DNA from: an uncultured Acidobacteriota bacterium
GTDB lineage: Bacteria > Acidobacteriota > UBA6911
Length of the DNA stretch: 64,000 nt
NCBI GenBank assembly: GCA_963827655.1
Contig: CAWHCF010000026.1
Coordinates: forward strand, 32,001 to 96,000
Direction of reading: 5' to 3'
The position numbers were made by a program, and so were the translations under genes. Of the stretch, positions 38,096 through 55,502 are shown in pieces. The notes under the pieces were generated by a model. That model was given only the letters and a program-made list of their open reading frames with translations, was not told the DNA's origin and ran no database searches. The first letter of the stretch is position 1. Each line of letters begins with the position of its first letter.

Positions 38096-38439
38096 GGCAG
38101 GTCCTCCGCTTTCACGGTGAAGAAGCGGCCGATGATGGCTGTCGTCTGTTCCCAATGGCGGGTCTCGGCCCGGAGCTGGCTACGTCCAGCGCGTGTCAGC
38201 CGGTAGAAGCGCGCCTTGCGGTTCTTCTCGGAGGCGCCCCACTCGGACGCGATCGCGCCCTCCTGCTCGAGCTTCAGCAGTACCGGATACAGAGTCCCCT
38301 GGTTAACGGAGAGAAGGTCCCCGCTGATCTGCTCGATGCGCCGGGCGATACCGTAGCCATGGAGCGGTCCCAGCACATCCAGCGTCTTGAGGACCATCAG
38401 CGCCAGGGTGCCTTGCCGAACGTCGGTCTTTTCTTTCAT
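38092..38439 (-). CDS. PadR-family regulator (acidobacterial subtype)
   Basis: QGTLALMVLK, HGYGIARRI, QGTLYP and NRKARFY; stop overlaps the ADOP start. Confidence 0.92.
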   Translation of the reverse strand: MKEKTDVRQGTLALMVLKTLDVLGPLHGYGIARRIEQISGDLLSVNQGTLYPVLLKLEQEGAIASEWGASEKNRKARFYRLTRAGRSQLRAETRHWEQTTAIIGRFFTVKAEDLP

Positions 38440-38450
38440 TGCCGCCATCC

Positions 38451-38501
38451 TTTGGGTTTCCAACAGGAATCATAGCGCACTTCTTTTGGGAAACCAACAG
38501 G
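38451..38501. promoter_or_regulatory. Two TTGG-N4-CCAA palindromes, putative PadR operator
   Basis: tttgggtttccaacagg at 38451 and tttgggaaaccaacagg at 38485, directly upstream of the PadR gene. Confidence 0.55.
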
Positions 38502-38761
38502 TAAGTCAGAATGGCCCAGTTCGGCCGGGAATCGGAATCGCGCCTGTGAGAAGATGTTTGGGCGTGGCGCTCATCGTCGTCCGTCGCGGAATCCGGGCTG
38601 CTGGTGGAAGATCCTCAAGACCTGTCGACAAACGGCCAGGCAGGCTGCCTTTACTCGCGAAGCAACCGTCAGTGGAAACATCCGATTTCGACGGGTGGAA
38701 GCTCAGAGGGTCGCACGCAGAAGGGCAGGTTTCCCTCAAGAAGCTGTTCGGCTGATAGCCT

Positions 38762-40360
38762 TCAGCGAGCTGGCGCGGCGCTTGTCGGGCTGGCAAACCG
38801 TCGAAAGAAGCTCGCGTCGTTCCAGCGAGGGCGCGACTCGCGATTGGCGATCTCCTCGACGGCTCGAGCGTAGAGCCGGTTAAAGTCGGCGGCCGCCTTC
38901 AAATCTACCGGCTGATTCACGTCGTCCGAGGGCGCGTGGTAGCGCTCCTTGCGCCAGCGCTGGACGTACTCGTGCTCGGGCGAGCCCTTGATGAAGCCGA
39001 CCTTCAGCGAGAGAGCGGGAACCCCCTTCCTGATGAAGCTGTACTGGTCGCTGCGGGTGAAGGCATTGCGTTCCGGCTCCGGGTCGGAGAGGACCTGAAC
39101 ACCGAGCGCACTCGCCACCTTTCTCAGGTCGCCGGCGAGGTCCGACTCTTCCAGGCCCTGCACGATGAGACTGGTAAGCGGGAAGAAGGGAGAAAACATG
39201 TCCGTGTTCAGGTTCGCGACGATGCCCTCACGCGGCACCGTCGGATGGGCGGCGTAGTAGCGGGAACCCAGAAGGCCTTTCTCTTCGGCGGTCACGGCCA
39301 GAAAGACCACGGACCGGCGCAGGCGCGTCTTGCTTTCCTTGAGCAGGCGAGCCGTCTCGATAAGGGTGGCGATTCCCGAAGCGTTATCCATGGCGCCGTT
39401 GTAAATCTCATCCCCGTTGATGGGCTTGCCCACGCCCACATGATCCAGGTGCGCCGACAAGACCACGTACTCTCCCTTGAGCCTGGGATCGGACCCGGGG
39501 AGGACCCCGACCACGTTCGGGGATTCCCGTTCCTCGCGGACAAAGCTCACGGTCGCGAGCACCGACCCGGCTATCGGAAAACGAGGGAGCGGCTTTCTCT
39601 CCTTGGCTGCCGCCAGCAGGTTCATGAATTCGTGGCCGGTCCCGCCGAAGAGCCTGGCCGCGTGCTCCGGGTTGAATGTCACCGAGAGCTGCAGTCCAGG
39701 GGTTTCATGGAGGTCCGGGTCACTCAACTCCATGGCCGGAAGGAATCGCGCCAGCTTCGAGCGCTCCCAGGGCACGTCCTGGCCCTGCGGATTCTGAATC
39801 GCGATGATGCCGGTAGCTCCAGCGCGCTTGAGGGAACTCCAGCGTTCCCCGGCGGCTTGATAGTGAGCCAGTAATGGGCCGGGGATATGCGTGGGCCCGC
39901 CGGTAAAGTACACCGCTACCTTGCCGCGCAGGTCGAGCCCGGCCAGGTCGTCGTAACCCACCTCCGGTACTCTAAGGCCGTAGCCGGCGAAGACCAGGGG
40001 CGCCTCGACCTGTGGCGGGGGCTCGACCCGCATGCTGAAGACGGCTTGCTCGCCGAGCAGGACCGGCTCCCGTTTGCCGTCGCGGACGATCGTGAGGCTC
40101 GACTTTTCTTCCACGATGCGACGCGCGCGAAAGGAGATCGGCTGCATGTATCCTGCGGTCCCGGCAGGCGCGAGCCCGGCCGCGGCGAACTGCTGAGCGA
40201 CGTACTCAGCGGCACGTCGATGCTCCGGCGTGCCGGTCTCCCGCCCGCGCAGCTCATCGGAGGCAAGGAACTTGACGTGCGACCACCAGCGCTCGCCGTC
40301 CCGGTTTTCCAACGCGGCGAGGCTGGCAAGCCAGAGCATAAAGAAGGATAGTGTCTTCAT
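38762..40360 (-). CDS. M28-family metallopeptidase with PA domain, secreted
   Basis: SAHLDH, GAMDNASG, AEEKGLLGS, RSDQYSF and YHAPSDD. Confidence 0.92.
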   Translation of the reverse strand: MKTLSFFMLWLASLAALENRDGERWWSHVKFLASDELRGRETGTPEHRRAAEYVAQQFAAAGLAPAGTAGYMQPISFRARRIVEEKSSLTIVRDGKREPVLLGEQAVFSMRVEPPPQVEAPLVFAGYGLRVPEVGYDDLAGLDLRGKVAVYFTGGPTHIPGPLLAHYQAAGERWSSLKRAGATGIIAIQNPQGQDVPWERSKLARFLPAMELSDPDLHETPGLQLSVTFNPEHAARLFGGTGHEFMNLLAAAKERKPLPRFPIAGSVLATVSFVREERESPNVVGVLPGSDPRLKGEYVVLSAHLDHVGVGKPINGDEIYNGAMDNASGIATLIETARLLKESKTRLRRSVVFLAVTAEEKGLLGSRYYAAHPTVPREGIVANLNTDMFSPFFPLTSLIVQGLEESDLAGDLRKVASALGVQVLSDPEPERNAFTRSDQYSFIRKGVPALSLKVGFIKGSPEHEYVQRWRKERYHAPSDDVNQPVDLKAAADFNRLYARAVEEIANRESRPRWNDASFFRRFASPTSAAPAR

Positions 40361-40466
40361 CGGCGTGCTCCTCAGGACACCTGACCTTAGCATGACTTTG
40401 AATGGCAGGGAAAGACAACGAGGCTCTCTTCGCCTCCTGGCGGTAATGATCAGAGATTCCCGTAAA

Positions 40467-40691
40467 TCATCCGGCCGCGGCAATTTTGCCGTCACGAATC
40501 AGGACGACACCTTTCTCTATGGGATTTGATTCCGGCGAGGGGTAAATTTTCGCGTCTACGAGCGCGATGGAGTCAGCGGAGGTTCTGCCGGCCTGCTCGG
40601 GACGCGAGCGGGGCGGAAAAAGGCTGCACACCGCCAGCAGAAACAATCCGGCCGTGACCGGGAGCGTGCTGCGCGAAGTCTGTTCGTTCAT
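40467..40691 (-). pseudogene. N-terminal fragment of a secreted amidohydrolase
   Basis: Signal peptide plus IALVDAKIYPSP..PIEKGVVLIRDGKIAAAG*, stopping before the HxH motif. Confidence 0.7.
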
Positions 40692-40804
40692 AGTTGCTCC
40701 GAAAGGCGCCGGCTGTGTTTACGGTCAGAGCCCACCGGAGGTTCCGTGAAAGAAAGCGCAATCCGATCCGCCCGGCTAGGACAGAACCTACACTGCCCAA
40801 CGGT

Positions 40805-40893
40805 TGACCAATGACCAATGACCAATGACCAATGACATGACGGCGCCAAACCTCCCATTGGTCATTTTTCATTGGTCATTTTCATTTTTCATT
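40805..40893. repeat. TGACCAA x4.5 with inverted TTGGTCA arm
   Basis: Read directly from the sequence. Confidence 0.9.
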
Positions 40894-40934
40894 CAATCGA
40901 CCCGTAAATTCTTTGCTTTTTGTGGTGATCGGCG

Positions 40935-40962
40935 GGAACCGGAGGTGAACTTTCTTTCGTTC
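40935..40962 (+). promoter_or_regulatory. Putative ECF-type promoter GGAAC-N18-CGTT
   Basis: Ends about 10 nt before ATG 40972; no obvious RBS. Confidence 0.4.
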
Positions 40963-40971
40963 TAGGCAGAC

Positions 40972-43393
40972 ATGAACTGGACACAGGACCTTCGCTTTGC
41001 GTTTCGGATGATCCGCAAGAATCCGTGGTTTTCGGCGGCCATCGTGATGACCCTCGCCGTGGGGATGGGCGTCAACACCACGGTGTTCAGCCTGGTCAAC
41101 GGCGTGCTGTACAAGCCGCTCCCCTTTCCGGGCGGCGAGCGGCTTGTGATGGTGTCGGCCGACAACGTCTCACGCGCTCGGGACTTCGTGAACATGTCCT
41201 ACCCGGACTTTCGCGACTTCCGAGAGGCGGCGAACGCGTTCGAGCACCTGGAAGCCTTTACCGGCGAACCGATGAGCCTGGGCGAACGCGGAAATCCGCC
41301 GCAGCGCTATCGAGGGATGCGGCTCAGCGCGGGCATGTTCGAGATGCTGCGTGTGACGCCGGTCCTCGGCCGCGGTTTTGTCGCTTCCGACGAGAAGGCG
41401 GGAGCCGGAGCGGTTGTGCTGCTCGGGCACGGAGTCTGGAAGGAGCGTTACGGGAAGGATGCCGGTGTCATCGGGCGAGCCGTGCGCATCAACGAAAAGC
41501 CGGCGGTCATTGCCGGCGTCATGCCGGAGGGTTTCAAATTCCCGAACAATGAAGATTTATGGATGCCGGCCGTTCCCGATGCGCAGCTCGAGCGCCGGGA
41601 CAACCGCAGATTCAGGCTGGTTGGGATTCTGAAAGAAGGCCGTTCGATCGCCGAAGCCCAGGCCGACCTGGGCGTGGTGGCGCACCGCCTGCAACAGCAG
41701 TTTCCCGACAGCCACAAGGACCACGGGATACGCGTCCAGACCTTCCATGAGGTGATGAACGGCGGGACCATCCGGCTGGTCTTTTTACTCATGCTGGGGG
41801 CGGTCGGCTTCGTCCTCCTGATCGCCTGCGCGAACGTGGCGAACATGCTGCTGAGCCGCGCGGTCAATCGCGCCCGGGAAGTTTCAATCCGGGCGGCGCT
41901 CGGCGCCGGCCGCTGGCGGATCATCCGGCAGCTCCTGATCGAGAGCGTCGTCCTTGCGCTGCTGGGCGGGTTGCTGGGCCTGTTTCTGGCGCGCTGGGGA
42001 ATCCATGGTTTCTCGCTGGCCGTGGAGAATGTGGGCAAGCCGTACTGGGTCGAATTCTCCATGGACTACGTGGTGTTTGGATATTTCGCCGCGATCATCG
42101 TGCTGTCGGGGATCGTCTTCGGCCTTGCCCCGGCACTGCAGACGTCGAGGGTGGATCTCAGCCAGGCGCTGAAGGAGGGCGCGCGCAGCGCAGGCGGAAG
42201 TCACGGCGGCTTTGTAACGGGCGCGCTGGTGGTGGTCCAGTTCACGCTGGCCGTTGTGCTGCTGAGCGGCGCCGGACTGATGATGCGCAGCTTCCTGCTG
42301 GCGCAGGACGAGTTTTCCTTTCTGCATGGCGAGCGGGTCCTGGCGGCGCGAGTCGGGCTCCCGGAGAGCCGGTATCCGAAACCCGAAGACAGGCAGCAGT
42401 TCTACGAGAAACTCGTGGGGCGGCTGGGATCTCTGCCGGGAGCGCAGGTGGTCTCGTTCGTATCGAATGTTCCGAATGGCGGCTCGGCCGGATGGAGGTT
42501 TGAGCTGGAGGGGCAGGCCATTCCCGAAGCCGAGCGCCGGCCCGCCGCGGCGGGTGTGGTGGCATCGAAAGATTATTTCCGGCTGCTCGGCCTCGCCGTG
42601 GTGCGGGGGCGTGAATTCGAAGACTATGACGGACTGCCGGGCAAGGAAGCGGCGATCGTGAGCCAGCAATTTGTGGCCCGCCACTACCCAAACCAGGATC
42701 CTATCGGTAAACGGCTGCGCCTGTTCGGTCCAAAAAACGAGCCCAAGGCCTGGATGACCATCATCGGGGTGGTGCCGGGCTTCAGGCAGAACGATCCCAG
42801 CAATCCCACGAACGACTCGCAGGTATTTGTCCCGCACCGCTTCGACAGTTACGCGGGAATGACGATTTTGATTCGAACCCAGGGCGCGCCCGCCTCGCTG
42901 GCGCAGGCAGTCCGGAGCGAGGTTCAGTTGCTGGACGAAGACCTGCCGCTTTTTAATGTGGAATCGCTCGAGGATTACTTCCGCCGCGCCAGGTGGCAGT
43001 GGCGGGTGTTCGGAACTTTGTTCCTGATCTTCGCGGTCGTTGCCCTGGGGATGGCTGCGGTCGGGATCTACGCGGTGATGGCGCACGGCACGAGTCGCCG
43101 GACGCAGGAGATCGGAATCCGGCTGGCTCTGGGAGCCGGATTTGGCGATATCATGCGGCTGGTCCTGCGCCGGGGATTGCTGCAACTCACTTCTGGGTAT
43201 GGTCCTCGGGGTGAGCGCGGCTCTGGCCGTCTGTCAATTGATGGCGCGGCTCTTGTTCAAGGTCTCACCGCGGGACCCGATAACGTTCGCGCTTGTTGCG
43301 ATAGCGCTGGCGACGGCGGGGCTGCTGGCCTGCTGGATACCGGCGCGCAGGGCAGCAAGACTCAACCCGGTGCGCGCGTTGAGATACGAGTGA
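40972..43393 (+). CDS. ADOP-type ABC permease; frameshift near 43190
   Basis: QDLRFAFR, LLIACANVANMLL and EIGIRLALGA; the true C-terminus RRAARLNPVRALRYE is in ORF 43142..43393. Confidence 0.92.
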
Positions 43394-43413
43394 GAGGCGT
43401 GGAAAAAAGAGTC

Positions 43414-43651
43414 TGTGGCGCGGGTCATCAAAGACCGTTTCAAAACCTCCCGATACCTGTGCGGACGGGCTATCAAGCCCGTCCGGCCCCCTAGTGGCAC
43501 AAAAGAACTTTTTGAGGCTAAATCCTCCCGATCACGTTACTTGCGACAGGTCTCTGATGACCCAGTCGCCACAGAAGGCTTCGGAAAGTGTCTGAGCCAC
43601 ATTCCAGGGTAGAGTTGACTTTGGCGAACGCCTCTAATGACCCGCGCCACA
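43414..43651. mobile_element. Composite palindromic element (REP/MITE-like), copy 1
   Basis: Terminal IR tgtggcgcgggtcat/atgacccgcgccaca and internal hairpin cggacgggct-atca-agcccgtccg; collinear inverted copy at 55566. Confidence 0.75.
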
Positions 43652-43729
43652 AAAGCCAAAAGGCTGCCGGTCAATCGAGAGCCGTTCGCTGAATTTCTTC
43701 ACAGCTTCTGAGGCCGGGACAACAACTTA

Positions 43730-44695
43730 TTACTCCCCTCGAACCGCTGCTGCGGGCATCGATCGAGTATTCCGCTCAACCAGGGCGCGAGCGACAGGCG
43801 CCAGCTTTTCGAGCTGCGCGGATGCCAGTGGAGACAAGTAGGGAAGTACAGGGCCGGTCCGAGCCACACCGGCCAGTTCGGTCGCAGCGTGGAGCACCCG
43901 GGCGGGCCCCCAGGAGTCGCGCAGGTCTTCCAGAGGCAGAAACTCCTGACGCAACGTCTCGGCGCTGTCATAGTCCTCTCGACGGCAGGCGTCGAAGAGC
44001 TGGTTGCTCAATGCGGGCGCGATGCACCCGGACCCTGTGGTGAATCCGGGAAGCTTCCACTGGCGCATGTGGGCGATGGCAGGACGCTCTCCGATCCCGC
44101 TTACCACCCTCGATCGGTCCACGCGCCGCAACAGGCCTTCCAGATAAGGATCAATGCGCGGATCCGCTCGAACGATCGCATACTTGATCCCGACACATAT
44201 CCCGGCGTCTACCAGCCGGGCGACCGCATCGAGCCCGGCGTCGCGGTCCGTGCCAAAGCTGTTTTCATCCTTGAAATACAGGATCAAGGGCATCTCCGCA
44301 GCTTCGGCGACTTCGCGCAGTCCCTGTTCAATGCCCCCTGGGTCTCGAGGATCCGCGCACGGGAGCATCATGACACAGGGGAAATTGTATTTCCGAAGCA
44401 CACGCGCCTGGTCCAGCGCGCGCCCGTAAGACGGTCCGGCGCTGGGGAGCATCCAGAGATCGCCCGGAAACGCGGACAACCACTCCAATAACACTTCGTA
44501 CTCCGCCAACGTAATATGATAGAGAAAAGCATTGCCGCCATAGACGAGGCGGGTTATGCCGCCGGACGAAATGTGATGGGCGATCCGGTCATTCTCGAGC
44601 CGGTCGAACTTTCGCCCCTCGTCGGCCTTGCGTGCCAGGGGCGGGACGGCAAATACACCGCGTAAGTCTTCCAGCGATACAGGCGTCTTCTTCAT
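43730..44695 (-). CDS. DHDPS-family aldolase/dehydratase (cytoplasmic)
   Basis: GVFAVPP, YGGNA, LILYFK, GIKYA and FTTGSG. Confidence 0.8.
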   Translation of the reverse strand: MKKTPVSLEDLRGVFAVPPLARKADEGRKFDRLENDRIAHHISSGGITRLVYGGNAFLYHITLAEYEVLLEWLSAFPGDLWMLPSAGPSYGRALDQARVLRKYNFPCVMMLPCADPRDPGGIEQGLREVAEAAEMPLILYFKDENSFGTDRDAGLDAVARLVDAGICVGIKYAIVRADPRIDPYLEGLLRRVDRSRVVSGIGERPAIAHMRQWKLPGFTTGSGCIAPALSNQLFDACRREDYDSAETLRQEFLPLEDLRDSWGPARVLHAATELAGVARTGPVLPYLSPLASAQLEKLAPVARALVERNTRSMPAAAVRGE

Positions 44696-44709
44696 CAGGC
44701 AATCCTCCT

Positions 44710-44757
44710 CGTTTCGTGGTGTCTTCGTGGTCGATGCTGCCGAACAAATCAACCACG
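44710..44757. repeat. Degenerate family A doublet at an operon junction
   Basis: ttcgtggtgtcttcgtggtc ... aacaaatcaaccacg, abutting the stop codon of the ACT gene. Confidence 0.65.
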
Positions 44758-45195
44758 CTATCTTTTCTTTTGCAGCGTCGCCTTCTTGATCAGGGCGGTG
44801 GCTTTGCGGGCGTCATCCTCGGTTTCGAAGCCGAATACGGCGGAGTATCTTCTCCCGATGACTTGCGCGACCATAAACCCGAAGTTTATACCTGCGTCCG
44901 CGACCGAACGGGCGATGGCGTATCCCAAGCCAGGCCTGTTGTCCCCCTCGACCAGCAGAGTGGGAATTGACGACGGGCTCAGCCCTGACCCCCTGGCAGC
45001 CGCCGCATTCTTTTTGCCTGTGACGGGATACAACTCGATGGCCGCCTTGCTTTCGTTCCCCGGGAAGCGATAGCCCATCACTACCTGCAAGTCGGTTCCC
45101 GCTCCGGCAAAGGGCTCCAGCGCACGGGCGAGAATTCCCGGCGTGTTCGCGACTTCCGCCCGCCAGAGCGTTATCTTTTTCACCGTCACCGCCAT
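44758..45195 (-). CDS. Stand-alone tandem ACT-domain protein
   Basis: Two ACT-like motifs, NTPGILARAL and DNRPGLGYAIA. Confidence 0.75.
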   Translation of the reverse strand: MAVTVKKITLWRAEVANTPGILARALEPFAGAGTDLQVVMGYRFPGNESKAAIELYPVTGKKNAAAARGSGLSPSSIPTLLVEGDNRPGLGYAIARSVADAGINFGFMVAQVIGRRYSAVFGFETEDDARKATALIKKATLQKKR

Positions 45196-45216
45196 TATCG
45201 TTCCTCCCTTAAGCGA

Positions 45217-46474
45217 TCAATTCTGGGGCCGCGTTTTATCCCAGTCAGGCCTGGATAATCCGTTCAGATCCCAGACGACTCGACCTTCACGGATGGTCAA
45301 TTCGCACTCGAGCTTCTGGGTTCCCATCATCTTGCCGCCGCCGACATCAATAAATCCGAAGTTTCCCTTTTTGAGACTCAGCACGACGAGGTCAGCCGTA
45401 GAACCGGCTCCCAGGCTCCCCAGCTCTGGTTCTCTTGATCTGCCGGGCCGGATTCCAGGTAGACCGCAGGATGACGTCCTGGATCGACATGCCGAGGTTC
45501 AGGAACTTGGACATGACGTTGAGCATGTCCTTCATCCCGGCGTTCATGCTGCCCGTGTGAAGATCGGTGCTGATTGAATCGGGTATGAACCCCTGCTTCA
45601 TGGCCGGCACCGCCTGGCTGAAAAGAAAGCTGCCTCCGCCGTGGCCCACGTCGAACAACACGCCCCGTTTGCGGGCTTCAAAGAGATACGGCATGACTTT
45701 GCCTTGACTGTCCAGCATCGGCACTCGTCCCAGATAGGTATGAGTATACATATCGCCTGGCCGAAGATGCTTCAGCACGAGCTCCTGGAAGGGACGTTCG
45801 GGCACGAAATCACCGAAGTCTACCATGATCGGGACATTCGTCATCTTGCCGGCCTCTACCGCCCGGTCGACCGGGTCCCACTCGGGCCCCTGATAGTGAG
45901 CCGTCTTGATTCCTACAATGATTCCCGGATATTGTCGGATCCGCATTGCAGTCAATCTGGCATCCATGTCGGCGAGGTTTTGCTCGACGGGACCTCCGCG
46001 CATGCCTGAGCCTACAATGTTGATCAGAGCGAGTACTCGAGTCCTGGCCTGGTCAATCACCTGGTCTTTGAACTGCCGGAAATTCCGCCAACCACTCCCG
46101 CCGGCGTCCACTACCGTGGTCACTCCGCTGCGAAAGGTGAAGCCGTCCGGAGGTACACTGCTGGTGCCGTTGCTCAGGTAAGCATCGGGTTCGGTGCCGT
46201 AGAAAACGTGAACGTGAATGTCTATCAGGCCCGGAGTCACAAACAATCCGGGAACATTGACCACCTGTCGGGCCTGTGCGGCTGGAATGCTGGAGGCCAC
46301 CTGGCTGATTTTGCCGCCCGTAATGCCGACATCCATGACGGAGTCAATCTGATTCCTGGGGTCAATAACATGTCCGCCTTTAATAAGGAGGTCAAATTGT
46401 TGCCCCCGTGCAATAGCGGCGAAAGCCCAGAGATACAAGCCCACGGCAACAAAGACGCTTTTTTGTGCTCGCAA
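45217..46474 (-). CDS. Amidohydrolase/deacetylase (dihydroorotase-like, EF_0837-type) with signal peptide; frameshift near 45430
   Basis: PGLIDIHVH, GVTTVVDAG, FDVGHGGGSF, SISTDLH and TWNPA; C-terminus continues to a TGA at 45217. Confidence 0.88.
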
Positions 46475-46522
46475 TTCTCCTCCTGCTGTTGCAATTTACT
46501 TCACTATAAACCGAGGTGAGTC

Positions 46523-46978
46523 ATGAAACAAAAATCAAAACTTCAATCTCGACGCGAGTTATTTCACGCCGGCGTTCTGGGTCTGGTTGGAACCGGTGCG
46601 ATGCAAGCGACGGACTCCTGGACGCCCAAGAAGAAGCGGGTAGAGGGCCCGATCCGCTCGGGACATCTTCTGTTCTTGAGCGGGATCGGAGGCTGGTATC
46701 CGGAGCGCCGCCCCGAGGGTCCTGGCGACATCCGCCGGCAGACTGGAGATGCGCTGGGGATCATGAAGGCTTCCCTGGAAAAGGCGGGTTCCTCCATGGC
46801 AAATGTCTTGAAGGTCCAGGTCTCGCTCGTCGATCCGGAGCGAAACTGGCAACCCATGGACGAGGTCTACAACACTTTTTTCCCCGAGCCCAGGCCCGCG
46901 CGATCCTACTGGGGCTCTACCGGGTTTCGGCGGCCCGGTCAGCTTCTCCAGATTGACTGCATCGCCTACGTCGACTAG
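46523..46978 (+). CDS. RidA/YjgF-family protein with Tat-like signal
   Basis: SRRELF plus h-region; LFLSG, NVLKV, PRPARS (catalytic Arg) and QIDCIA. Confidence 0.88.
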   Translation: MKQKSKLQSRRELFHAGVLGLVGTGAMQATDSWTPKKKRVEGPIRSGHLLFLSGIGGWYPERRPEGPGDIRRQTGDALGIMKASLEKAGSSMANVLKVQVSLVDPERNWQPMDEVYNTFFPEPRPARSYWGSTGFRRPGQLLQIDCIAYVD

Positions 46979-46982
46979 GTTG

Positions 46983-47072
46983 CTTCGCGTTTCTTAGTGT
47001 CTTCGTGTCTTCGTGGTTAGTGGGGCCAACAAATACCACAAGGATACAACGTCACGAAGAAACACCAGGAAT
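46983..47072. repeat. Family A inverted doublet directly after the RidA stop codon
   Basis: Forward arm 46983..47020; full reverse copy 47028..47072. Confidence 0.9.
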
Positions 47073-47120
47073 CTCCGTTGTCAAAGAACAAGAGCACCAG
47101 CGAGCGACATATAGAAACGT

Positions 47121-47545
47121 CAACTAGGCGCGCTTCGCTTCAGATTTCCGGCTCCTGGCCATAGATCAGAATGGCTTCCTCGGCGATCATTTCGGCAAAG
47201 GCGTTCCCGTCTCGCCGCATCGCGCGGAACTCCCCAGGAGTGTACACCAGGAGATCAACGGCACCCACCTCCGTCGGCAAAAGACGTGCGGCTTCCAGCA
47301 GACGATCGAAAAACGGGACATCTGTTTCTTTGATGACGACTACGTCCACGTCGCTCAATTCGTCCGCTTCTTTTCGAGCCCACGAGCCGAAAAGATAGAT
47401 GCACTTGGGCTCATAAGCAACCAAGGCGTCTCTTATTCGATCAACGTAGCTCCTTGAGTCGCAACTCTATTTCGTCTTGGGTTGCTGTCTCGTCACGCAG
47501 CTAGACCACAAAGACACAAAGAAACACCAACTAGGCGCGCTTCGC
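47121..47545. mobile_element. Insertion bounded by exact 18-bp direct repeats
   Basis: caactaggcgcgcttcgc at 47121..47138 and 47528..47545; the second copy includes the 3' end and stop codon of the SelA-like gene. Confidence 0.8.
47140..47424 (-). CDS. Minimal nucleotidyltransferase (MNT, type VII TA antitoxin-like); 5' end uncertain; partner gene truncated
   Basis: IYLFGSWAR..SDVDVVVI and VDLLVYTP; an overlapping ATG at 47162 gives only MARSRKSEAKRA*. Confidence 0.85.
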   Translation of the reverse strand: MVAYEPKCIYLFGSWARKEADELSDVDVVVIKETDVPFFDRLLEAARLLPTEVGAVDLLVYTPGEFRAMRRDGNAFAEMIAEEAILIYGQEPEI

Positions 47546-49078
47546 GGTCCAGCGGGCTTTGCCGTACTCCCCGAGGTCGAGATCGCCCGATAATCGGTCG
47601 GCGGATACCTGTCCGGTAAACCTGTAACTCAGGTTGATTCCTTCGCAGGGGAGGACGCTGCGCATCTGAATGTTTCCGCCATCGATGGTGCCACTCAAGT
47701 CGCCACGCGCTCTGCGCCCGAGATGGAGGCCGGAGACGCGATTATCTTTAACGTCCAGGATCATGGTGTGGCGCGCCGAACCGGAGGCAAAAGCCACGTC
47801 CACTTCCCAGCGCCCGGCTACATCGACCGACGGAGGCGCGGGAGCAGGTTTCTGCGCTCCCTTTGGAGCCTGGCTGAAAACTTCCCGGAGGCGGCGGGCT
47901 ACAAGCAGGTGATCGCCCTGTTTTATCGATACGGGTCGGATGGTGAAAGAATACCCGGTTCCGGTGGCGTGCGACATGATCCGAGGCTCGCCACTGACCA
48001 GCTTTTCGTACAGCTCGCCGGCCGTAATCGCAACCTTGTCAGGGTCCCACTCCACGTTCATCACGGGAAACGGACTGGCGCCGGCCGGAGGGACCATCTT
48101 GGTACGGACGCCGTCCACCTTGGTTATCGCGTCGCTGATATCGGTCAGCCAGGATTCCCACTGCCGATATTCTTTCTGGATGTCGCGAGTGGTTACCCAA
48201 ACCTCGATCGCCGCCAGCATTCCCATGATTTCTTCTTTGCCGACTTTCATCATGCGACCGAAGGCATGGTGCGGTGCGCTATTGACCCAGGCGGCCTGAA
48301 CCAGATCTTTGCGCCCCAACAATAATCCCGCGCACTGCGGGCCCCGAATGATCTTCCCGCCGCTATAAGCCACCAGGTCGGCGCCCCGTGACAGATAGGG
48401 ATTGGGTTTCAGCGGGAGCTCGGCGGCGGCGTCGACCAGCACAGGCACATTCATTTTGTGTGCCGCTTTCGCCATTTCTTCCAGCCGGATCTTCCCTCTG
48501 GCTTCGCCCGTACCCAGAACCGCCACCATCGCCGTATGGCGTCCCAGGGCCGCGTGGAATTCCTGCTCCGAGTCCACTTCGACTACTTGCACACCCACGG
48601 TCCGGATCGCGTGGTCATATTCGTTGCGCGACTGCTTCGGCATGATGACTTCGTTCTTCAGACCGGTCAGGTTCGGTAACTGCTTCATGTTCTCCGGATC
48701 GGCCCCCGCCACGCAAGCCGCGGTGGCGTGTGTCAGGCCAGCAGCGGCTCCCGAGGTCACAATTCCCGATTCACAACCCAATAACTCGGACAGGCGGACG
48801 CCGACTCGCTCCATCAGCTCGTCGATATTGACCGAGTGGTACGAAGCTTCTTCCATGGCCTTCTTGACTTCGGGCAATGTCAGGGTGCCGCCGTTGATCG
48901 TAAGGGTGGCCGTGAGGTTGATGAAAGGTCGAACGCCGATTCGGGTGTAGATGTTGGGAGTGCCGTGAGAAGGCGGAGTGTCCGCCGCGTCCGTCGTTCG
49001 GGCAACCGCGCCGGTAGCCGCGGCCAGTCCTGCGGCCTGGAAGACTTCCCGCCGGGTGATCTTGGATCGAGGGTTCAT
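47531..49078 (-). CDS. SelA-related/DgaE-like PLP enzyme with Tat signal and C-terminal beta domain
   Basis: TRREVF signal, RPFINLTAT, VTSGAAAG, VDAAAE, YSGGK (PLP Lys), RGPQ and MKVGKEEI. Confidence 0.85.
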   Translation of the reverse strand: MNPRSKITRREVFQAAGLAAATGAVARTTDAADTPPSHGTPNIYTRIGVRPFINLTATLTINGGTLTLPEVKKAMEEASYHSVNIDELMERVGVRLSELLGCESGIVTSGAAAGLTHATAACVAGADPENMKQLPNLTGLKNEVIMPKQSRNEYDHAIRTVGVQVVEVDSEQEFHAALGRHTAMVAVLGTGEARGKIRLEEMAKAAHKMNVPVLVDAAAELPLKPNPYLSRGADLVAYSGGKIIRGPQCAGLLLGRKDLVQAAWVNSAPHHAFGRMMKVGKEEIMGMLAAIEVWVTTRDIQKEYRQWESWLTDISDAITKVDGVRTKMVPPAGASPFPVMNVEWDPDKVAITAGELYEKLVSGEPRIMSHATGTGYSFTIRPVSIKQGDHLLVARRLREVFSQAPKGAQKPAPAPPSVDVAGRWEVDVAFASGSARHTMILDVKDNRVSGLHLGRRARGDLSGTIDGGNIQMRSVLPCEGINLSYRFTGQVSADRLSGDLDLGEYGKARWTAKRA

Positions 49079-49236
49079 ATTACCTCCGTTCAGTGTAGGC
49101 GAAAATTTTGGCAAAGATTCTTGGTGTTTCGGTTCGTGTCTGTTAGTGCGCCGAAGCCAACTCCTGGTACGCGTAGTTCGCATTTGCTGCACCGCTGAGC
49201 ACGCAACCGACGACCAGCCAGGGAGCCGCATCACGT

Positions 49237-50133
49237 CTAAGTCTCGAGAGCCCGCCTGCAGTACTCCAGGCACCGCTTGACTTCCTGGACGGTGTCGCTT
49301 CCCTTGTACTCGTATTCGAGGTTGGCGGGTATGTTCCACTTTTGTTCGCGCAACAGCGCGAGCACCGCTTTGATGGGCGTGTCGCCTTCTCCGAAAGGCA
49401 CGTTATCCCCCTGATCCTTCTTGCGGTCTTTAATGTGCAGGGTCACGATCCGGTCGTGGTGCCGGCGCAGGAAGTCGACCGCGTCGAAATTGGCAGCCGT
49501 GAAATGACCGATGTCGAGGTTGATGGCAATGTATTCCGAATTACCCTCCATCGCTCGCGCGAAGCTTTCGGGAGTGGCGAATTCATTCGGATCGGATACC
49601 TTTGAATGGTTATGCATGCCAACCCGGATTTTATGCTTTCGCGCGAAGCCATCGATGCGCTTGGCCGTGCTGACGTTGGACGATGCGGTAATTATCTTGA
49701 CCCCAAGAGCCTTGGCTATCTCAAAGCCGCGTTCCATCTCCGCATCCGTGAAATCGTCCCTGAAGCTCAAATTATAGGCGTAGAGATCGATTCCAGCGCT
49801 GTCGAGCTTGGCGCGGACGGCTTTGATTTGATCCAGGGGAACGGTCAGGCGCCAATTTCGGAGGGCTTCGCGACCCTGAGGTCCTCGCGTTGCTTCGTCT
49901 CTCGGTTCCACATGTCCCTGCCAGAGCTCGCAACTGCTGAGTCCGACCTCCACCATGGCTTTTATTGCTTCGTCCAGGGAACGATCCCGAAAACTATAAG
50001 TCTGAACTCCGATCTGGACCCCTTTGACCTTGGAATCCGGCTTCTTCGCCTGTCCCGGCAAAAAGTCCGGGAAAACAGGTGAGGTAAGGCAGCCGGCCAG
50101 TAGCTTGTTCAGGTCTCTTCTGCTCAGTTTCAT
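49237..50133 (-). CDS. Sugar phosphate isomerase/epimerase (xylose isomerase-like TIM barrel), Tat signal
   Basis: SRRDL, GVQTYSFRD, GMHNH, NLDIGHF, LHIKD and LEYE. Confidence 0.88.
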   Translation of the reverse strand: MKLSRRDLNKLLAGCLTSPVFPDFLPGQAKKPDSKVKGVQIGVQTYSFRDRSLDEAIKAMVEVGLSSCELWQGHVEPRDEATRGPQGREALRNWRLTVPLDQIKAVRAKLDSAGIDLYAYNLSFRDDFTDAEMERGFEIAKALGVKIITASSNVSTAKRIDGFARKHKIRVGMHNHSKVSDPNEFATPESFARAMEGNSEYIAINLDIGHFTAANFDAVDFLRRHHDRIVTLHIKDRKKDQGDNVPFGEGDTPIKAVLALLREQKWNIPANLEYEYKGSDTVQEVKRCLEYCRRALET

Positions 50134-50326
50134 CTCTATCCTCCAGCCGTTCGGGCATCAATGTCGCGTCTGACTGTTGTTCCTCTGTTGTCCGAATGGG
50201 CCTGGCTCGCGGTTACCGACGGGAAAACAAAATGGAACGTCAGAGCGACTGCATCGTTTGAGTTCTGTGCCGGCCTGAGAGCGGAAGTCTACTCCAGGAT
50301 CCGCCAAAATGCGAGAATCGCCTCTA

Positions 50327-50467
50327 GGGCTCGCGCAGAAATAACTTCACATTCTGGCGCGAGAGTCGGTGGTCAATCATGGACCGGTTTCTGTTCGCTA
50401 AGCACGCTGAGGATCGCGCCCCTTCTCGGGCCTGCAGCAGAACGCGAACTTATTTCTGCGCGAACCC
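50327..50467. mobile_element. MITE, shorter inverted relative of 6800..7008
   Basis: TIRs GGGCTCGCGCAGAAATAACTTCACATTC and GGGTTCGCGCAGAAATAAGTTCGCGTTC; TA on both flanks. Confidence 0.85.
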
Positions 50468-50636
50468 TAAACCCGTCCGGGTCGTCCGCAAACGGATCGC
50501 AAGGTCAGGGTTGTTCCGAGAGGGTATGCTGCCGAGCGTAACAGCCAAGGAACCGGCAATGATTTCGACGACCACGAGGCTTCGGGCAGGAATTGTGTTG
50601 CGGTGGGGTCCGTTCGGCTAAGCCGAGCTCACGGTT

Positions 50637-51715: not shown

Positions 51716-51961
51716 TGACCCCTCTTGCGGTTAAACACCGGCTTTGCCGGCCTGCGGTTTTGGTTGAGCAGCGGTCTGCGAAACCAGCTGCTTCCTGACT
51801 GAGAGACTGTCCTTGCTCCGGCTCACTCCATAAGACGGGATCCGTCAAAGAAACCCGCCACGCCCGCAAAAAAGATTCTTGCAATCGCATCAACGTCTCG
51901 AAAGAGAGGGTTCGGCCTGCTTGTGGTAAATTGTTGTTTTCTATTGTCTTTCAAGGGGAAG

Positions 51962-52531
51962 ATGGCAACAGCCGGTTCACAGCGAATCACGCATCTGCTT
52001 CTGGCCTGGGGCGACGGCGACCAGACCGCGCTCGAAAAGTTGATGCCGCTGGTCTACGAGGAGCTGCGTAGAGTGGCGGCGCGCCATATGCGGCGGCAGG
52101 GTCCCGGCCACACGTTGCAGACTACCGCGCTGGTCAACGAGGCCTACGTGCGGTTGATTGACTCAAGCCAGGTGCGCTGGCAGAACCGCGCGCACTTCTT
52201 CGCGGTCTCGGCGCAGATGATGCGGCGCATTCTGATCGATTTTGCCCGGGCCCGCCGCTACCTCAAGCGTGGCGGCGGCGCGCAACAGGTTTCACTCGAT
52301 GAGACACTGGCGGTCGCGCCGGAGCGTGGGTCGGATCTGCTGGAGTTAGATGAGGCTCTTACGAGGTTGGCGGCGCTCAATCGACGACAGGCCCAGATCG
52401 TGGAGTTGCGGTACTTCGGGGGGCTGAGCGAGGAAGAGGCGGCGGAGGCGCTCAAGATCTCGCTGCGCACCGTGCAGCGTGATTGGAACCTCGCGCGTCT
52501 CTGGCTCTACCGCGAATTAAGAAAAAAGTAA
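51962..52531 (+). CDS. ECF sigma factor of the kinase-associated (TIGR02999-like) type
   Basis: [47 protein letters not shown] and VQRDW. Confidence 0.92.
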
Positions 52532-52618
52532 AAATGCTGAGTAAAGTGCTGAGTAAAAAGTGCCTGCTTAGCACTTTCTACTTTTTCTACTCAGCACTTT
52601 TAACTTTTTACTTTTTTT
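52522..52618. repeat. AT-rich imperfect palindrome between the ECF and kinase genes
   Basis: aaaaaagtaaaa..tgctgagtaaagtgctgagta ... tactcagcactttt..ttttactttttt. Confidence 0.8.
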
Positions 52619-52620
52619 GG

Positions 52621-55502
52621 ATGATGACGCCTGAACGGTGGGAACAGATCGGCCGGCTTTACGAAGCGGCGAAGGAGCTCGAGCCATCCGAGCGCGCGGC
52701 GTTCCTGGACCAGGCTTGCGCGGGCGACGAAGCCTTGCGACGCGAGGTCGAGTCGCTGCTTGCGGCGGAGGAATCGGTCGGAGGCTTCATCACAGCGCCC
52801 GCGTTGAAAGATGCAGCGCAGCTGCTGACCGGTGAATCGCCCGAGGCGATGGTCGGAAAGCAGCTCGGCCATTACCAGATCCTCTCGTTTATCGGCGCGG
52901 GCGGGATGGGCGAGGTCTACGCAGCCAAAGACACGCGGCTGGGCCGCAGAGTCGCCGTCAAGCTGCTGCATGCTTCCGTCTCGAGCGATGCCGACCGGCT
53001 TCGACGCTTCGGGCAGGAGGCGAAGACCATTGGGATGCTCAATCACCCGAACATCCTCACCATTCACGACGTCGGCACGCACGAAGGCGCGCCGTACATT
53101 GTCTCGGAACTGCTCGAAGGCGAGACGTTGCGCGAGCAGATCAAAGACGGAGCCATAGCGCCCTCCAGGGCCGCGGACTTCGCCTTGCAGATCACACGGG
53201 GACTCGCTGCGGCGCACGAGCGCGGGCTTGCCCATCGAGATTTGAAGCCGGAGAACCTTTTCATCACCAGAGACGAGCGAATCAAGATTCTCGACTTCGG
53301 CCTGGCCAAGCTGGTGCAACCTCAGTTCAGCCGAGCCGGCGCGAGCGGGCCGGCGTTTCCCGTCGTCCGCACCAATCCGGGCATGGTAATGGGGACGGTC
53401 GACTACATGGCGCCGGAACAGTTGCGCGGCGAGGAAGCGGATCATCGCGCGGACATCTTCGCCTTCGGGGTAATCTTCTACGAGATGCTCGCGGGCGAGC
53501 GGCCGTTCCGCGGCGGCTCGTCGGCGAGACCATTAGCGCAATTCTCAAGCAGGACGCGCCGGAGTTGCCGGCGCCGTCCAGCGCGCCATCGCAGGGTTTG
53601 GAGCGCGTGATCCACCGCTGTCTGCAGAAGCGGCCGGAGCAGCGGTTTCAATCAGCCAGCGATCTGGGCTTTGCCCTGGAAGCATTGACATCTTCAGCCC
53701 TGGGGCCTTCAGGCTCGCGGTTGCGCTCAACCGCACCAAGGCCGACTCTGCCGTTCCGCCTCGACCAGGGCCGAATCGGTTGGATCGCGGCCGGCGTTTT
53801 CATGCTCGCGGCAATCCTGCTGGCCGTGGCTTATTTCAGACGTCCGGCGGAGGAGGCGAACGCGATCCGCCTATCCGTCTTACCGCCGGAGAAGGCAGCC
53901 AGAGTGGGCGATCCGGTCATTGCGCCAAACGGCCGCCGGCTCGCCTTCGTTGCCACGACTGAAGGCAAGACACTGGTCTGGGTGCGCCCGCTGGGTTCTC
54001 TTGCCGCGCAGCCGCTGCCCGGAACGGAGGGCGCGTCCGGGCCCTTCTGGTCGCCGAACGGACGGTCCATCGGCTTCTTTGCGCAGGGAAAGCTCAAAAA
54101 GATCGCGCTCTCGGGGGAGCCGCCCGTGACACTCGGCGAAGCGCCGGCTAACAGAGGTGGCACCTGGGGGCCCAACGATATCATTCTGTTTGTGCCGCAT
54201 CCGAATGCGGGGGTGTATCGAGTCTCCGCTGCGGGTGGGTCCGTGACGGCAGTGACGGCGCCGGACGGTTCGCGCCAGGAGGGAAGTCAGCTCTGGCCCT
54301 GTTTCCTGCCTGACGGCAACCATTTTCTGTATTTCATGACCGGCCTGCAGCAAGAGGAGGCCGGGATTTATATCGCTTCGCTCGACGGACGCGAGAAGAA
54401 GCGGCTCCTTACCGCGGGGTCGAATGCGCTCTATGCGCCGCCGGGACACCTGCTCTTCGTGCGGGAAAGGGTCTTGTGGGCCCAGCCATTTGATGCCGAT
54501 GAGAGCCGGCTCGCGGGCGAACCGTTGCGCCTCGCCGATCAGATACCGGTCCAGCCCTTCGGCAAGGGATTCTTCTCCGTCTCGCAGAATGGGGTATTGG
54601 TCCACAGTTCGAGCGGAAGCAGCGCAGATCAGCAAGCCGGCTGGTTCGATCGCGCGGGGAAACCGCTCGGGTTGATTGGTTCACCCGGTGCCTACCTCAA
54701 TTTCGGGCTTTCGCCTGATGAGGGCCGGGTCGCTCTGGCGAGGTTTGATCGTCAGACCGGAACACCGGACATCTGGCTTCTCGACCTGGCGCGGGGCATT
54801 GAGTCGCGCTTCACATTCGATCCTGCGCCGGACCTCTTTCCGTTCTGGTCGCCGGACGAGGGACGCATATTATGGCTTTCCATCCGGGGAGGGCTTTTCA
54901 GCCTCCAGCGGAAGGCGTCCAGCGGCGCGGGTCAGGACGAGCTGTTGCTCACGTCAGATCACCAGAAACATCCCACCGACTGGTCCGGGGACGGACGCTT
55001 TATCGTTTACCAGGATAACGACCCCAAGACGAAATGGGATGTGTGGGTCCTGCCGCTCGACGGGGAGCGTAATCCCTTTCCTTTTGCGCAGACGGGATTC
55101 AACGAGGCCAACGGCCATTTCTCTCCCGATTCAAAATGGATCGCCTGGACTTCAGATGATTCAGGAAGTAACGAGGTTTACGTCCAGGCTTTTCAGAATC
55201 CGGAGGGCAGGCGGCAAATCTCGACCAAAGGCGGCGACCAGCCTCGCTGGCGCCGTGACGGGAAAGAGCTGTTCTACATCGCCGCCGACGGGAAGTTGAT
55301 GGCCGTTGAGGTGAAGAGTGGCGCAGGTTTCGAGTCCGGCGCGCCCAAAGCGCTCTTTGATCTGCGGGGCATCAGGGCGATTGGCGGCAACTACGCCGTG
55401 GCGGCCGACGCCAGGAAGTTCCTGGTCATGACGAGCATTGAAGAAGCGAGCGCAGCGCCGTTCATCGTGGTGCTCAACTGGACGGCGGACTTGAATCGAT
55501 GA
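52621..55502 (+). CDS. Ser/Thr kinase with ECF-associated N-terminal extension, TM helix and TolB-like propeller; frameshift near 53525
   Basis: [32 protein letters not shown] and GTVDYMAPE; WSPD repeats. Confidence 0.93.

Follow-up and report, generated by a model that had tools for sequence, protein, structure and literature searches.

The stretch of DNA analysed here, hereafter the window, comprises 64,000 nucleotides from an uncultured soil Acidobacteriota bacterium of the UBA6911 lineage (contig CAWHCF010000026.1) and carries, between positions 43730 and 50133, a group of genes of which three appear to form an exported module that recurs in other genomes. The largest of these (47531-49078, minus strand) encodes a 515-residue fold-type I pyridoxal 5′-phosphate (PLP) enzyme related to the ammonia-lyase DgaE and to SelA (TIGR01437, 178.2 bits; NF047797, 173.1 bits); its start was placed at an ATG preceded by GGAGG. 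The second (46523-46978, plus strand) encodes a Rid-family, RidA-like protein of 151 residues with a twin-arginine leader, and the third (45217-46474, minus strand) a cog3964/PRK09237-type metal amidohydrolase or deacylase with a Sec-type leader. The RidA gene diverges from the amidohydrolase gene, the gap to the start of the latter being 48 bp, and a small nucleotidyltransferase gene sits between the PLP and RidA genes. An earlier note on this DNA had described six genes as an apparently periplasmic deamination cluster for amino-sugar acids, namely these three together with genes for a sugar isomerase, an ACT-domain protein and a DHDPS-family enzyme. Our open reading frame (ORF) check and profile searches agree with its coordinates and families; it had missed the opposite strand of the RidA gene, the intervening nucleotidyltransferase gene and a frameshift in the amidohydrolase gene.

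Judged by profile scores, the PLP enzyme is a divergent relative of the SelA-related subfamily TIGR01437. Its match spans model positions 1-362 of 363, below the cut-off of 385.3 bits, and its score with the DgaE equivalog model NF047797 is far below the cut-off of 600 bits, which is reached by none of the 12 matches to this model in a profile search of the whole genome. The SelA model TIGR00474 yields 32.6 bits against a cut-off of 267.9, with a partial match confined to model positions 232-351, and a real selA gene scoring 398.5 bits lies on another contig of the same genome; a true SelA is therefore rejected, as the earlier note had anticipated. A true DgaE is rejected as well, owing to the low score and to the loss of the His-His loop and of the phosphate-site arginines described below. 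The nearest solved structures are those of DgaE (7lc0, E 2.5e-37) and of Cap15 from capuramycin biosynthesis (8t7j), each 28% identical to the window enzyme, and the same two proteins are the top Foldseek matches of its AlphaFold model (predicted local distance difference test, pLDDT, 82.6; DgaE, E 4.9e-28 and TM score 0.83 on the target; Cap15, E 4.6e-27). SelA is a distant relative in fold (Foldseek E ~4e-20, 18% identity). Cap15 serves biosynthesis in the cytoplasm and follows a different chemistry, and we know of no leader, barrel or RidA link for it. At least 7475 database proteins match the PLP enzyme, and members of this family are automatically annotated as selenocysteine synthase or DgaE.

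The alignment with DgaE covers the whole catalytic part. The PLP lysine (K242, in an SGGK motif) is invariant across 21 family sequences, as is R256, which aligns with the carboxylate-binding Arg-226 of DgaE. In contrast, His-162 and His-163 of DgaE align, with middling posterior support, with a Gly-Glu pair in a loop that is two residues shorter. Among the 21 family members there is no invariant or nearly invariant histidine at residues 160-200, and the position of the His-His loop is occupied by an invariant glutamate, E192. The DgaE study describes both histidines as strictly conserved among DgaE sequences and proposes that His-163 avoids the release of a toxic enamine (PMC9529869). The loss of this residue in the window enzyme fits the presence of a dedicated RidA, a connection that we draw ourselves. 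Docking by the DgaE authors places Arg-301, Arg-332 and Arg-346 at the phosphate of the substrate (PMC9529869). In a pairwise alignment of middling support, these three residues align with V339, H370 and V383 of the window enzyme, where R366 and R381 are invariant and nearby; none of the DgaE arginines is kept, which supports the earlier suggestion that the substrate would be non-phosphorylated.

The window enzyme also departs from DgaE at its two ends. A leader (residues 1-40) precedes the catalytic part (residues ~41-404), which is followed by a linker and by a C-terminal barrel (residues ~422-514) that is eight-stranded, avidin-like and modelled with a pLDDT of 92.8. A fold search with this barrel returned avidins and designed barrels at Z 11-13.5 with root-mean-square deviations of 1.6-2.8 and, outer-membrane barrels included, Z values of 10-13.5 overall, matches that point to no function. 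The barrel domain also occurs alone (31% identity to residues 407-514) at positions 11145-11471 of contig C1 of the same genome, within an open frame of 270 residues. Ten long PLP paralogues are encoded in the source genome, including the window copy, nine of them with a twin-arginine (RR) motif and one with a Sec-like leader. The nine further copies (contigs C2, C4, C6, C12, C36, C44, C46 and C50) comprise eight with the RR motif and the one with the Sec-like leader; two of them carry the C-terminal barrel, and none has an amidohydrolase or RidA gene nearby, both partners being found only at the window copy.

The RidA-like protein scores 56.5 bits with PF01042 (gathering cut-off 27.3), and its Rid domain covers residues 44-150. 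A P-A-R-S stretch is readable near its C-terminus and putatively holds the catalytic arginine of RidA. No RidA of this subtype was found in a further 50 genomes from the order. For the amidohydrolase, the first 360 residues alone give 380 bits with PRK09237, over the cut-off of 371, even though the protein is truncated; the EF_0837 model gives 190 bits, the PDB entries 8je0, 2ogj and 2ics are matched at E 2e-43 to 1e-34, and an HxH motif is readable in the sequence. Unlike the known cog3964/PRK09237/EF_0837-type enzymes, whose substrates are hardly known, the window protein carries a Sec leader.

The reading frame of the amidohydrolase gene breaks near 45428-45432, inside a short run (45424-45436), through one extra base; the first 360 codons extend to 45392, and the last ~60 lie in another frame that ends in a stop at 45217-45219. 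Every covering contig in four of four soil metagenome runs, only places covered by contigs being counted, has one base fewer at 45428 or 45432; since they match the window at 90-99%, these contigs may come from other strains. The assembly itself seems prone to single-base indels: selA (in three pieces), an amidohydrolase paralogue and a PLP paralogue are also split, with broken genes outside the window at C23:243631-244996, C34:30749-31697 and C44:13681-14862. A MacB-like gene at 40972-43494 is probably split too, a near-identical relative in another locus (L107) having 806 residues. Because other genes of the assembly are split as well, we favour an assembly error over a pseudogene.

Proteins exported by the twin-arginine translocation (Tat) pathway start with an S/T-R-R-x-F/L-type motif and, after it, a hydrophobic stretch. 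The earlier note had read such starts on the PLP enzyme, RidA and the isomerase, a Sec-like signal on the amidohydrolase and no signal on the ACT and DHDPS-like proteins, and these readings stand. When RR was counted within the first 60 residues, it was present in 115 of the 120 best PLP homologues listed, the remaining five beginning at or within the mature domain, and in 111 of 120 isomerase homologues. The RidA rows of related loci, 15 in number and inspected by eye, include 13 with RR, one with a Sec-like leader and one with a late start. Most of 37 amidohydrolase orthologue rows, likewise read by eye, have a hydrophobic leader that stops just before the conserved mature start; in one row an RR motif stands in place of the plain hydrophobic leader. 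Most DHDPS-like homologues also begin without a leader. The leader of the PLP enzyme, 40 residues long and modelled by AlphaFold at low confidence, is an addition that the cytoplasmic DgaE lacks; residue 2 of DgaE corresponds in the alignment to residue 40 of the window enzyme. It is worth noting that the leader sequences vary among the homologues while the RR motifs stay conserved, and that TatC is encoded in the same genome (230.9 bits). With signals conserved across phyla, the export of the PLP enzyme, RidA and the amidohydrolase, as the earlier note had proposed, is very probable.

Gene neighbourhoods were compared at 80 loci that encode the PLP enzyme, taken from one genome per species with flanks of at most 10 kb and drawn from Acidobacteriota, Bacteroidota and Latescibacterota, plus one locus from Rhodospirillales; partners were searched for by tblastn with the window's proteins within 10 kb. 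The amidohydrolase is found in 39 of the 80 loci, 36 of these with at least 46% identity, and RidA in 24; stricter ORF clustering leaves 29 and 18. Triple-RidA fusions lie beside the PLP gene in four loci. Among cultured carriers, Adhaeribacter aquaticus DSM 16391 (L063) has the module, with RidA, amidohydrolase, PQQ dehydrogenase and PLP enzyme genes, and Acidobacteriaceae bacterium KBS 96 (L035) has the PLP gene. In a tree built from 83 PLP rows, the trio-linked loci are scattered over many branches of Acidobacteriota and Bacteroidota, so that the linkage is either old or recurrent. Both partners are present in four of the nine rows that make up the window's own clade. A single clade of trio-linked PLP enzymes was considered and rejected, since the labels are scattered and 11 changes would be needed on the tree. 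The conserved cluster expected by the earlier note thus holds for the PLP enzyme with the amidohydrolase and RidA, which together are best described as a predicted three-gene exported module; it does not extend to the isomerase (0/80), the ACT protein (0/80) or the DHDPS-like protein (1/80), which are neighbours of the trio in this genome only.

These three neighbours differ in their features. The isomerase gene (49237-50133, minus strand) lies on the strand of the PLP gene, 158 bp upstream of it, and encodes a xylose-isomerase-like TIM-barrel protein of 298 residues (PF01261, 67.7 bits) with an N-terminal twin-arginine motif. The protein is predicted to be exported, yet it is no conserved partner of the trio. 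Its leader has a short and proline-rich hydrophobic stretch; a lipoprotein signal (L-A-G-C) was rejected, as homologues do not conserve the cysteine. An inverted repeat (50325-50469), whose 32-nt arms are 88% complementary and 81 nt apart, immediately precedes the region of the isomerase gene on its upstream side. The ACT-domain protein (44758-45195, minus strand, 145 residues) scores 23.2 bits with PF01842, under the cut-off of 27, and has no signal. The DHDPS/NAL-family protein (43730-44695, minus strand, 321 residues, ATG at 44695) also has no signal; it reaches 28.7 bits with PF00701 (gathering cut-off 22.1) and 29.6-35 bits with KdgD models whose cut-offs are 278-374, and its lysine motif aligns with the conserved lysine region of the family in an alignment to 3e96. 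We regard it as a candidate cytoplasmic sugar-acid enzyme that is no conserved partner of the trio. The only homologue that adjoins a PLP gene (L007:11437-12660; 55% identity) opens, from its putative start, with a signal-like T-R-K-D-F-L and an alanine-rich stretch, unlike the window copy.

The nucleotidyltransferase gene (47140-47424, minus strand) encodes an orphan MntA/HalB-like protein of 94 residues (PF01909, 35.3 bits) that scores 32.9 bits with an MntA-like model, under the cut-off of 60; no HEPN-sized ORF was found beside it. Direct repeats of 33 nt flank the gene (47106-47138 and 47513-47545; 88% identical), the second of which overlaps the last codons of the PLP gene. The gene is absent from all 80 PLP loci, and in a related locus (L006) RidA directly follows the PLP gene. 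The flanking repeats and this arrangement suggest an insertion and an inversion in the window; the nucleotidyltransferase gene is probably an insertion outside the pathway, and it looks as though this insertion duplicated the 3′ end of the PLP gene.

A promoter and terminator scan of 43400-50500 returned sites no commoner than in shuffled sequences and thus does not help to delimit operons. Six sequencing runs registered as RNA contain small shares of this DNA. The intergenic regions 44705-44729 and 46983-47015 contain short repeats based on GTGTCTTCGTG, and a run similar to these GTGTCTTCGTG repeats, read from translation, stands upstream of a paralogue on contig C36. The unrelated genes on one flank (35371-43494) include two MacB/FtsX-type permeases, a PadR regulator (38092-38463) and an M28 peptidase (38762-40495), and ORFs resembling an ECF sigma factor and Ser/Thr kinases were noted by eye downstream (51923-55502).

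The wider neighbourhoods of the PLP family point to carbohydrates. We counted Pfam-annotated neighbour clusters in the 80 loci; the counts are raw numbers of loci within this set. TonB-dependent or SusC receptors are present in 24 loci. Pyrroloquinoline quinone (PQQ) or GSDH dehydrogenases, among them several cytochrome c fusions and one CBM6 fusion, occur in 15. Lactonases follow with 12 loci, GFO oxidoreductases with 9, sulfatases with 8 and cytochrome c with 7; PIG-L deacetylases, which have RR leaders, and RraA-like aldolases are each found in 4. A Pedobacter locus (L071), for example, reads like a polysaccharide-utilisation locus, with SusC, SusD, an FG-GAP/ASPIC protein, GSDH, the PLP enzyme, a lactonase and RidA, and also cytochrome c, the amidohydrolase, an RraA-like protein and an SBF transporter. 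These recurrent neighbours fit a periplasmic oxidation of an amino sugar to an aldonic acid, although none of the markers reaches half of the loci. At L010:14707-16757, L043:5892-7900 and L034:2949-5020, the amidohydrolase is accompanied by a DUF362 protein that bears an RR leader and by an unannotated one of ~313 residues. Each of the two occurs in nine of the 80 loci, and they may be further members of the module.

Based on the above data, we infer for the trio a periplasmic deacylation, a PLP-dependent β-elimination and a RidA-dependent hydrolysis that act in this order on an unphosphorylated N-acyl amino acid or amino-sugar acid, a reading to which we give roughly an even chance. The Sec-exported amidohydrolase would remove the acyl group from an N-acylated α-amino-β-hydroxy acid, most likely a 2-acetamido-2-deoxy-aldonic acid such as N-acetyl-glucosaminate, which could arise when sugars are oxidised in the periplasm or come from oxidised chitin or glycans. 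The Tat-exported DgaE-like enzyme would then dehydrate the free amino acid, which bears no phosphate, across its C2-C3 bond to give an enamine or imine; as in DgaE, β-elimination of a β-hydroxy-α-amino acid is the probable reaction. Hydrolysis of this intermediate by the Tat-exported RidA would produce a 2-keto-3-deoxy acid and ammonium, and the keto acid would finally be imported and used in the cytoplasm. The coupling of a lyase to RidA is rather probable. An amino-sugar acid as the substrate is plausible, given that PQQ/GSDH dehydrogenases, lactonases, GFO oxidoreductases, PIG-L deacetylases and TonB/SusCD systems recur around the family, but it stays tentative, somewhat short of an even chance.

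This scheme has a functional, apparently non-homologous counterpart in the cytoplasmic OngB/OngC/OngD route, of which the trio would be an exported analogue. According to the report on this route in Pseudoalteromonas, the deacetylase OngB, the PLP deaminase OngC and the RidA protein OngD convert N-acetyl-glucosaminate (GlcNAc1A) into 2-keto-3-deoxygluconate, RidA is required for growth on N-acetyl-glucosaminate, and the cluster holds TonB-dependent receptors (PMC9537276). The combination of a metal deacetylase, a PLP deaminase and RidA is thus common to both. The Ong enzymes, unlike the putatively exported trio, are reported to be cytoplasmic and described as D-aminoacylase and D-amino-acid-deaminase types (PMC9537276); they appear to belong to other families than the window proteins. 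The window trio also has no kinase or transporter alongside and, in contrast to DgaE, neither a phosphotransferase system nor a KDGP aldolase near the PLP gene, RidA and the deacylase being linked instead.

Several findings weigh against the proposed route. The sugar-oxidation markers occur in only 28 of the 80 loci, 14 of the 51 without the amidohydrolase and 14 of the 29 with it, and in the window no dehydrogenase, lactonase, receptor or transporter lies beside the trio. The amidohydrolase is out of reach in 41 of the 80 loci and RidA in 56, some contigs being short. The amidohydrolase gene of this assembly is frameshifted, and Atu3266 (PDB 2ogj), the only characterised cog3964 member known to us, reportedly hydrolyses esters. 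The window RidA scores 41.6 bits with TIGR00004, under the cut-off of 106.25, and alignment support is only middling at precisely the two places where the PLP enzyme departs from DgaE, the His-His loop and the C-terminal arginines. Moreover, Cap15 is dependent on both O2 and PLP, so that the family is not limited to lyases. This last point leads to an explanation in which the PLP enzyme is no lyase at all and instead catalyses an O2-dependent oxidative decarboxylation of the Cap15 type, a transamination, a retro-aldol cleavage or an epimerisation, with RidA clearing an imine or being unrelated. Cap15 is as close to the window enzyme as DgaE is, the catalytic His-His loop is replaced by a family-invariant glutamate, and the scores are far below the DgaE cut-offs; we nevertheless consider this quite unlikely, because the recurrence of RidA beside the PLP gene, triple fusions included, fits the release of an enamine or imine, and because the pairing of a deacylase with RidA mirrors the Ong lyase route. 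A different choice of substrate would have the same three enzymes act on ordinary D-amino acids, such that N-acyl-D-serine, N-acyl-D-threonine or wall-derived compounds would be deacylated, dehydrated by the PLP enzyme and hydrolysed by RidA in the periplasm. The substrate of DgaE is formally a D-α-amino acid, the α-carboxylate arginine is kept, the Ong enzymes resemble D-amino-acid enzymes (PMC9537276), and RidA is the classical partner of serine/threonine dehydratases (PMC7688666). The neighbours, by contrast, are of carbohydrate type (PQQ/GSDH dehydrogenases, including the CBM6 fusion, lactonases, SusC/SusD, PIG-L and sulfatases), and no peptidase or racemase family stood out among the neighbour clusters of the 80 loci, which makes this alternative unlikely.

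The remaining two explanations concern the extent of the pathway and its compartment. That all six genes form one pathway, in which the DHDPS-fold enzyme stands in for a KDPG aldolase and splits the 2-keto-3-deoxy product, was the proposal of the earlier note and is improbable. The genes are adjacent, five of the six lie on one strand, and the L007 homologue adjoins a PLP gene and has a signal-like N-terminus. The DHDPS-like homologues are also found amid genes for sugar acids and polysaccharides (a second DHDPS-family gene, GFO oxidoreductase, IlvD/Edd, MFS, GH97, alginate lyase and fucosidase), which makes a role on keto-deoxy acids reasonable. The near absence of the three additional genes from the PLP loci is, however, matched in the reverse direction: the 25 metagenome loci in which a DHDPS-like homologue was found, including 12 of at least 9 kb, hold no PLP, RidA or amidohydrolase gene, while ACT is adjacent in two, both on contigs 97-98% identical, and the isomerase is present in one. 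At E <= 1e-20, the DHDPS-like gene was not found in the 50 further genomes from the order, and the stretch is not one operon, with RidA on the other strand and the nucleotidyltransferase gene in between. Since the gene is linked with the trio in neither direction, its role as a replacement aldolase remains a guess. Finally, the leaders might not be functional export signals and the enzymes might be cytoplasmic like DgaE, in keeping with the short, proline-rich hydrophobic stretch of the window isomerase. This is highly improbable: hundreds of sequences from different phyla keep the motifs although the leaders around them vary, the leader is an addition to the cytoplasmic DgaE fold, typically periplasmic proteins (cytochrome c, PQQ dehydrogenases and TonB receptors) are among the neighbours, and the genome encodes TatC. 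We therefore retain the three-gene exported deacylase, lyase and RidA route as the preferred reading.

What would be new here is the compartment, the deacylase/PLP-lyase/RidA logic itself being known; the family concerned is large, uncharacterised and often misannotated. To our knowledge, PLP lyases and RidA proteins have so far been described as cytoplasmic or organellar, and our literature searches returned no account of exported DgaE-like enzymes or of exported RidA. If true, an exported and co-inherited pair of a PLP lyase and RidA would place both the formation and the control of reactive enamines in the periplasm. A wider reading, which we hold to be doubtful, is that soil Acidobacteriota and Bacteroidota run a whole branch of amino-sugar catabolism outside the cytoplasm. 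Uptake through TonB/SusCD would be followed by oxidation at C1 by PQQ/GSDH-cytochrome c or GFO enzymes and by a lactonase, and then by cog3964 deacylation, deamination by the Tat-exported DgaE-like enzyme and the action of periplasmic RidA; the avidin-like barrel of the PLP lyase would capture the ligand, and an exported RraA-type aldolase would provide the last step in some loci. If this holds, periplasmic PLP-dependent elimination with enamine control would be a widespread strategy, in families with thousands of members. Knowledge of the substrate would correct the common misannotation of these proteins as selenocysteine synthase or DgaE, and could open a new route for the turnover of amino sugars or of oxidised chitin and glycans in soil.

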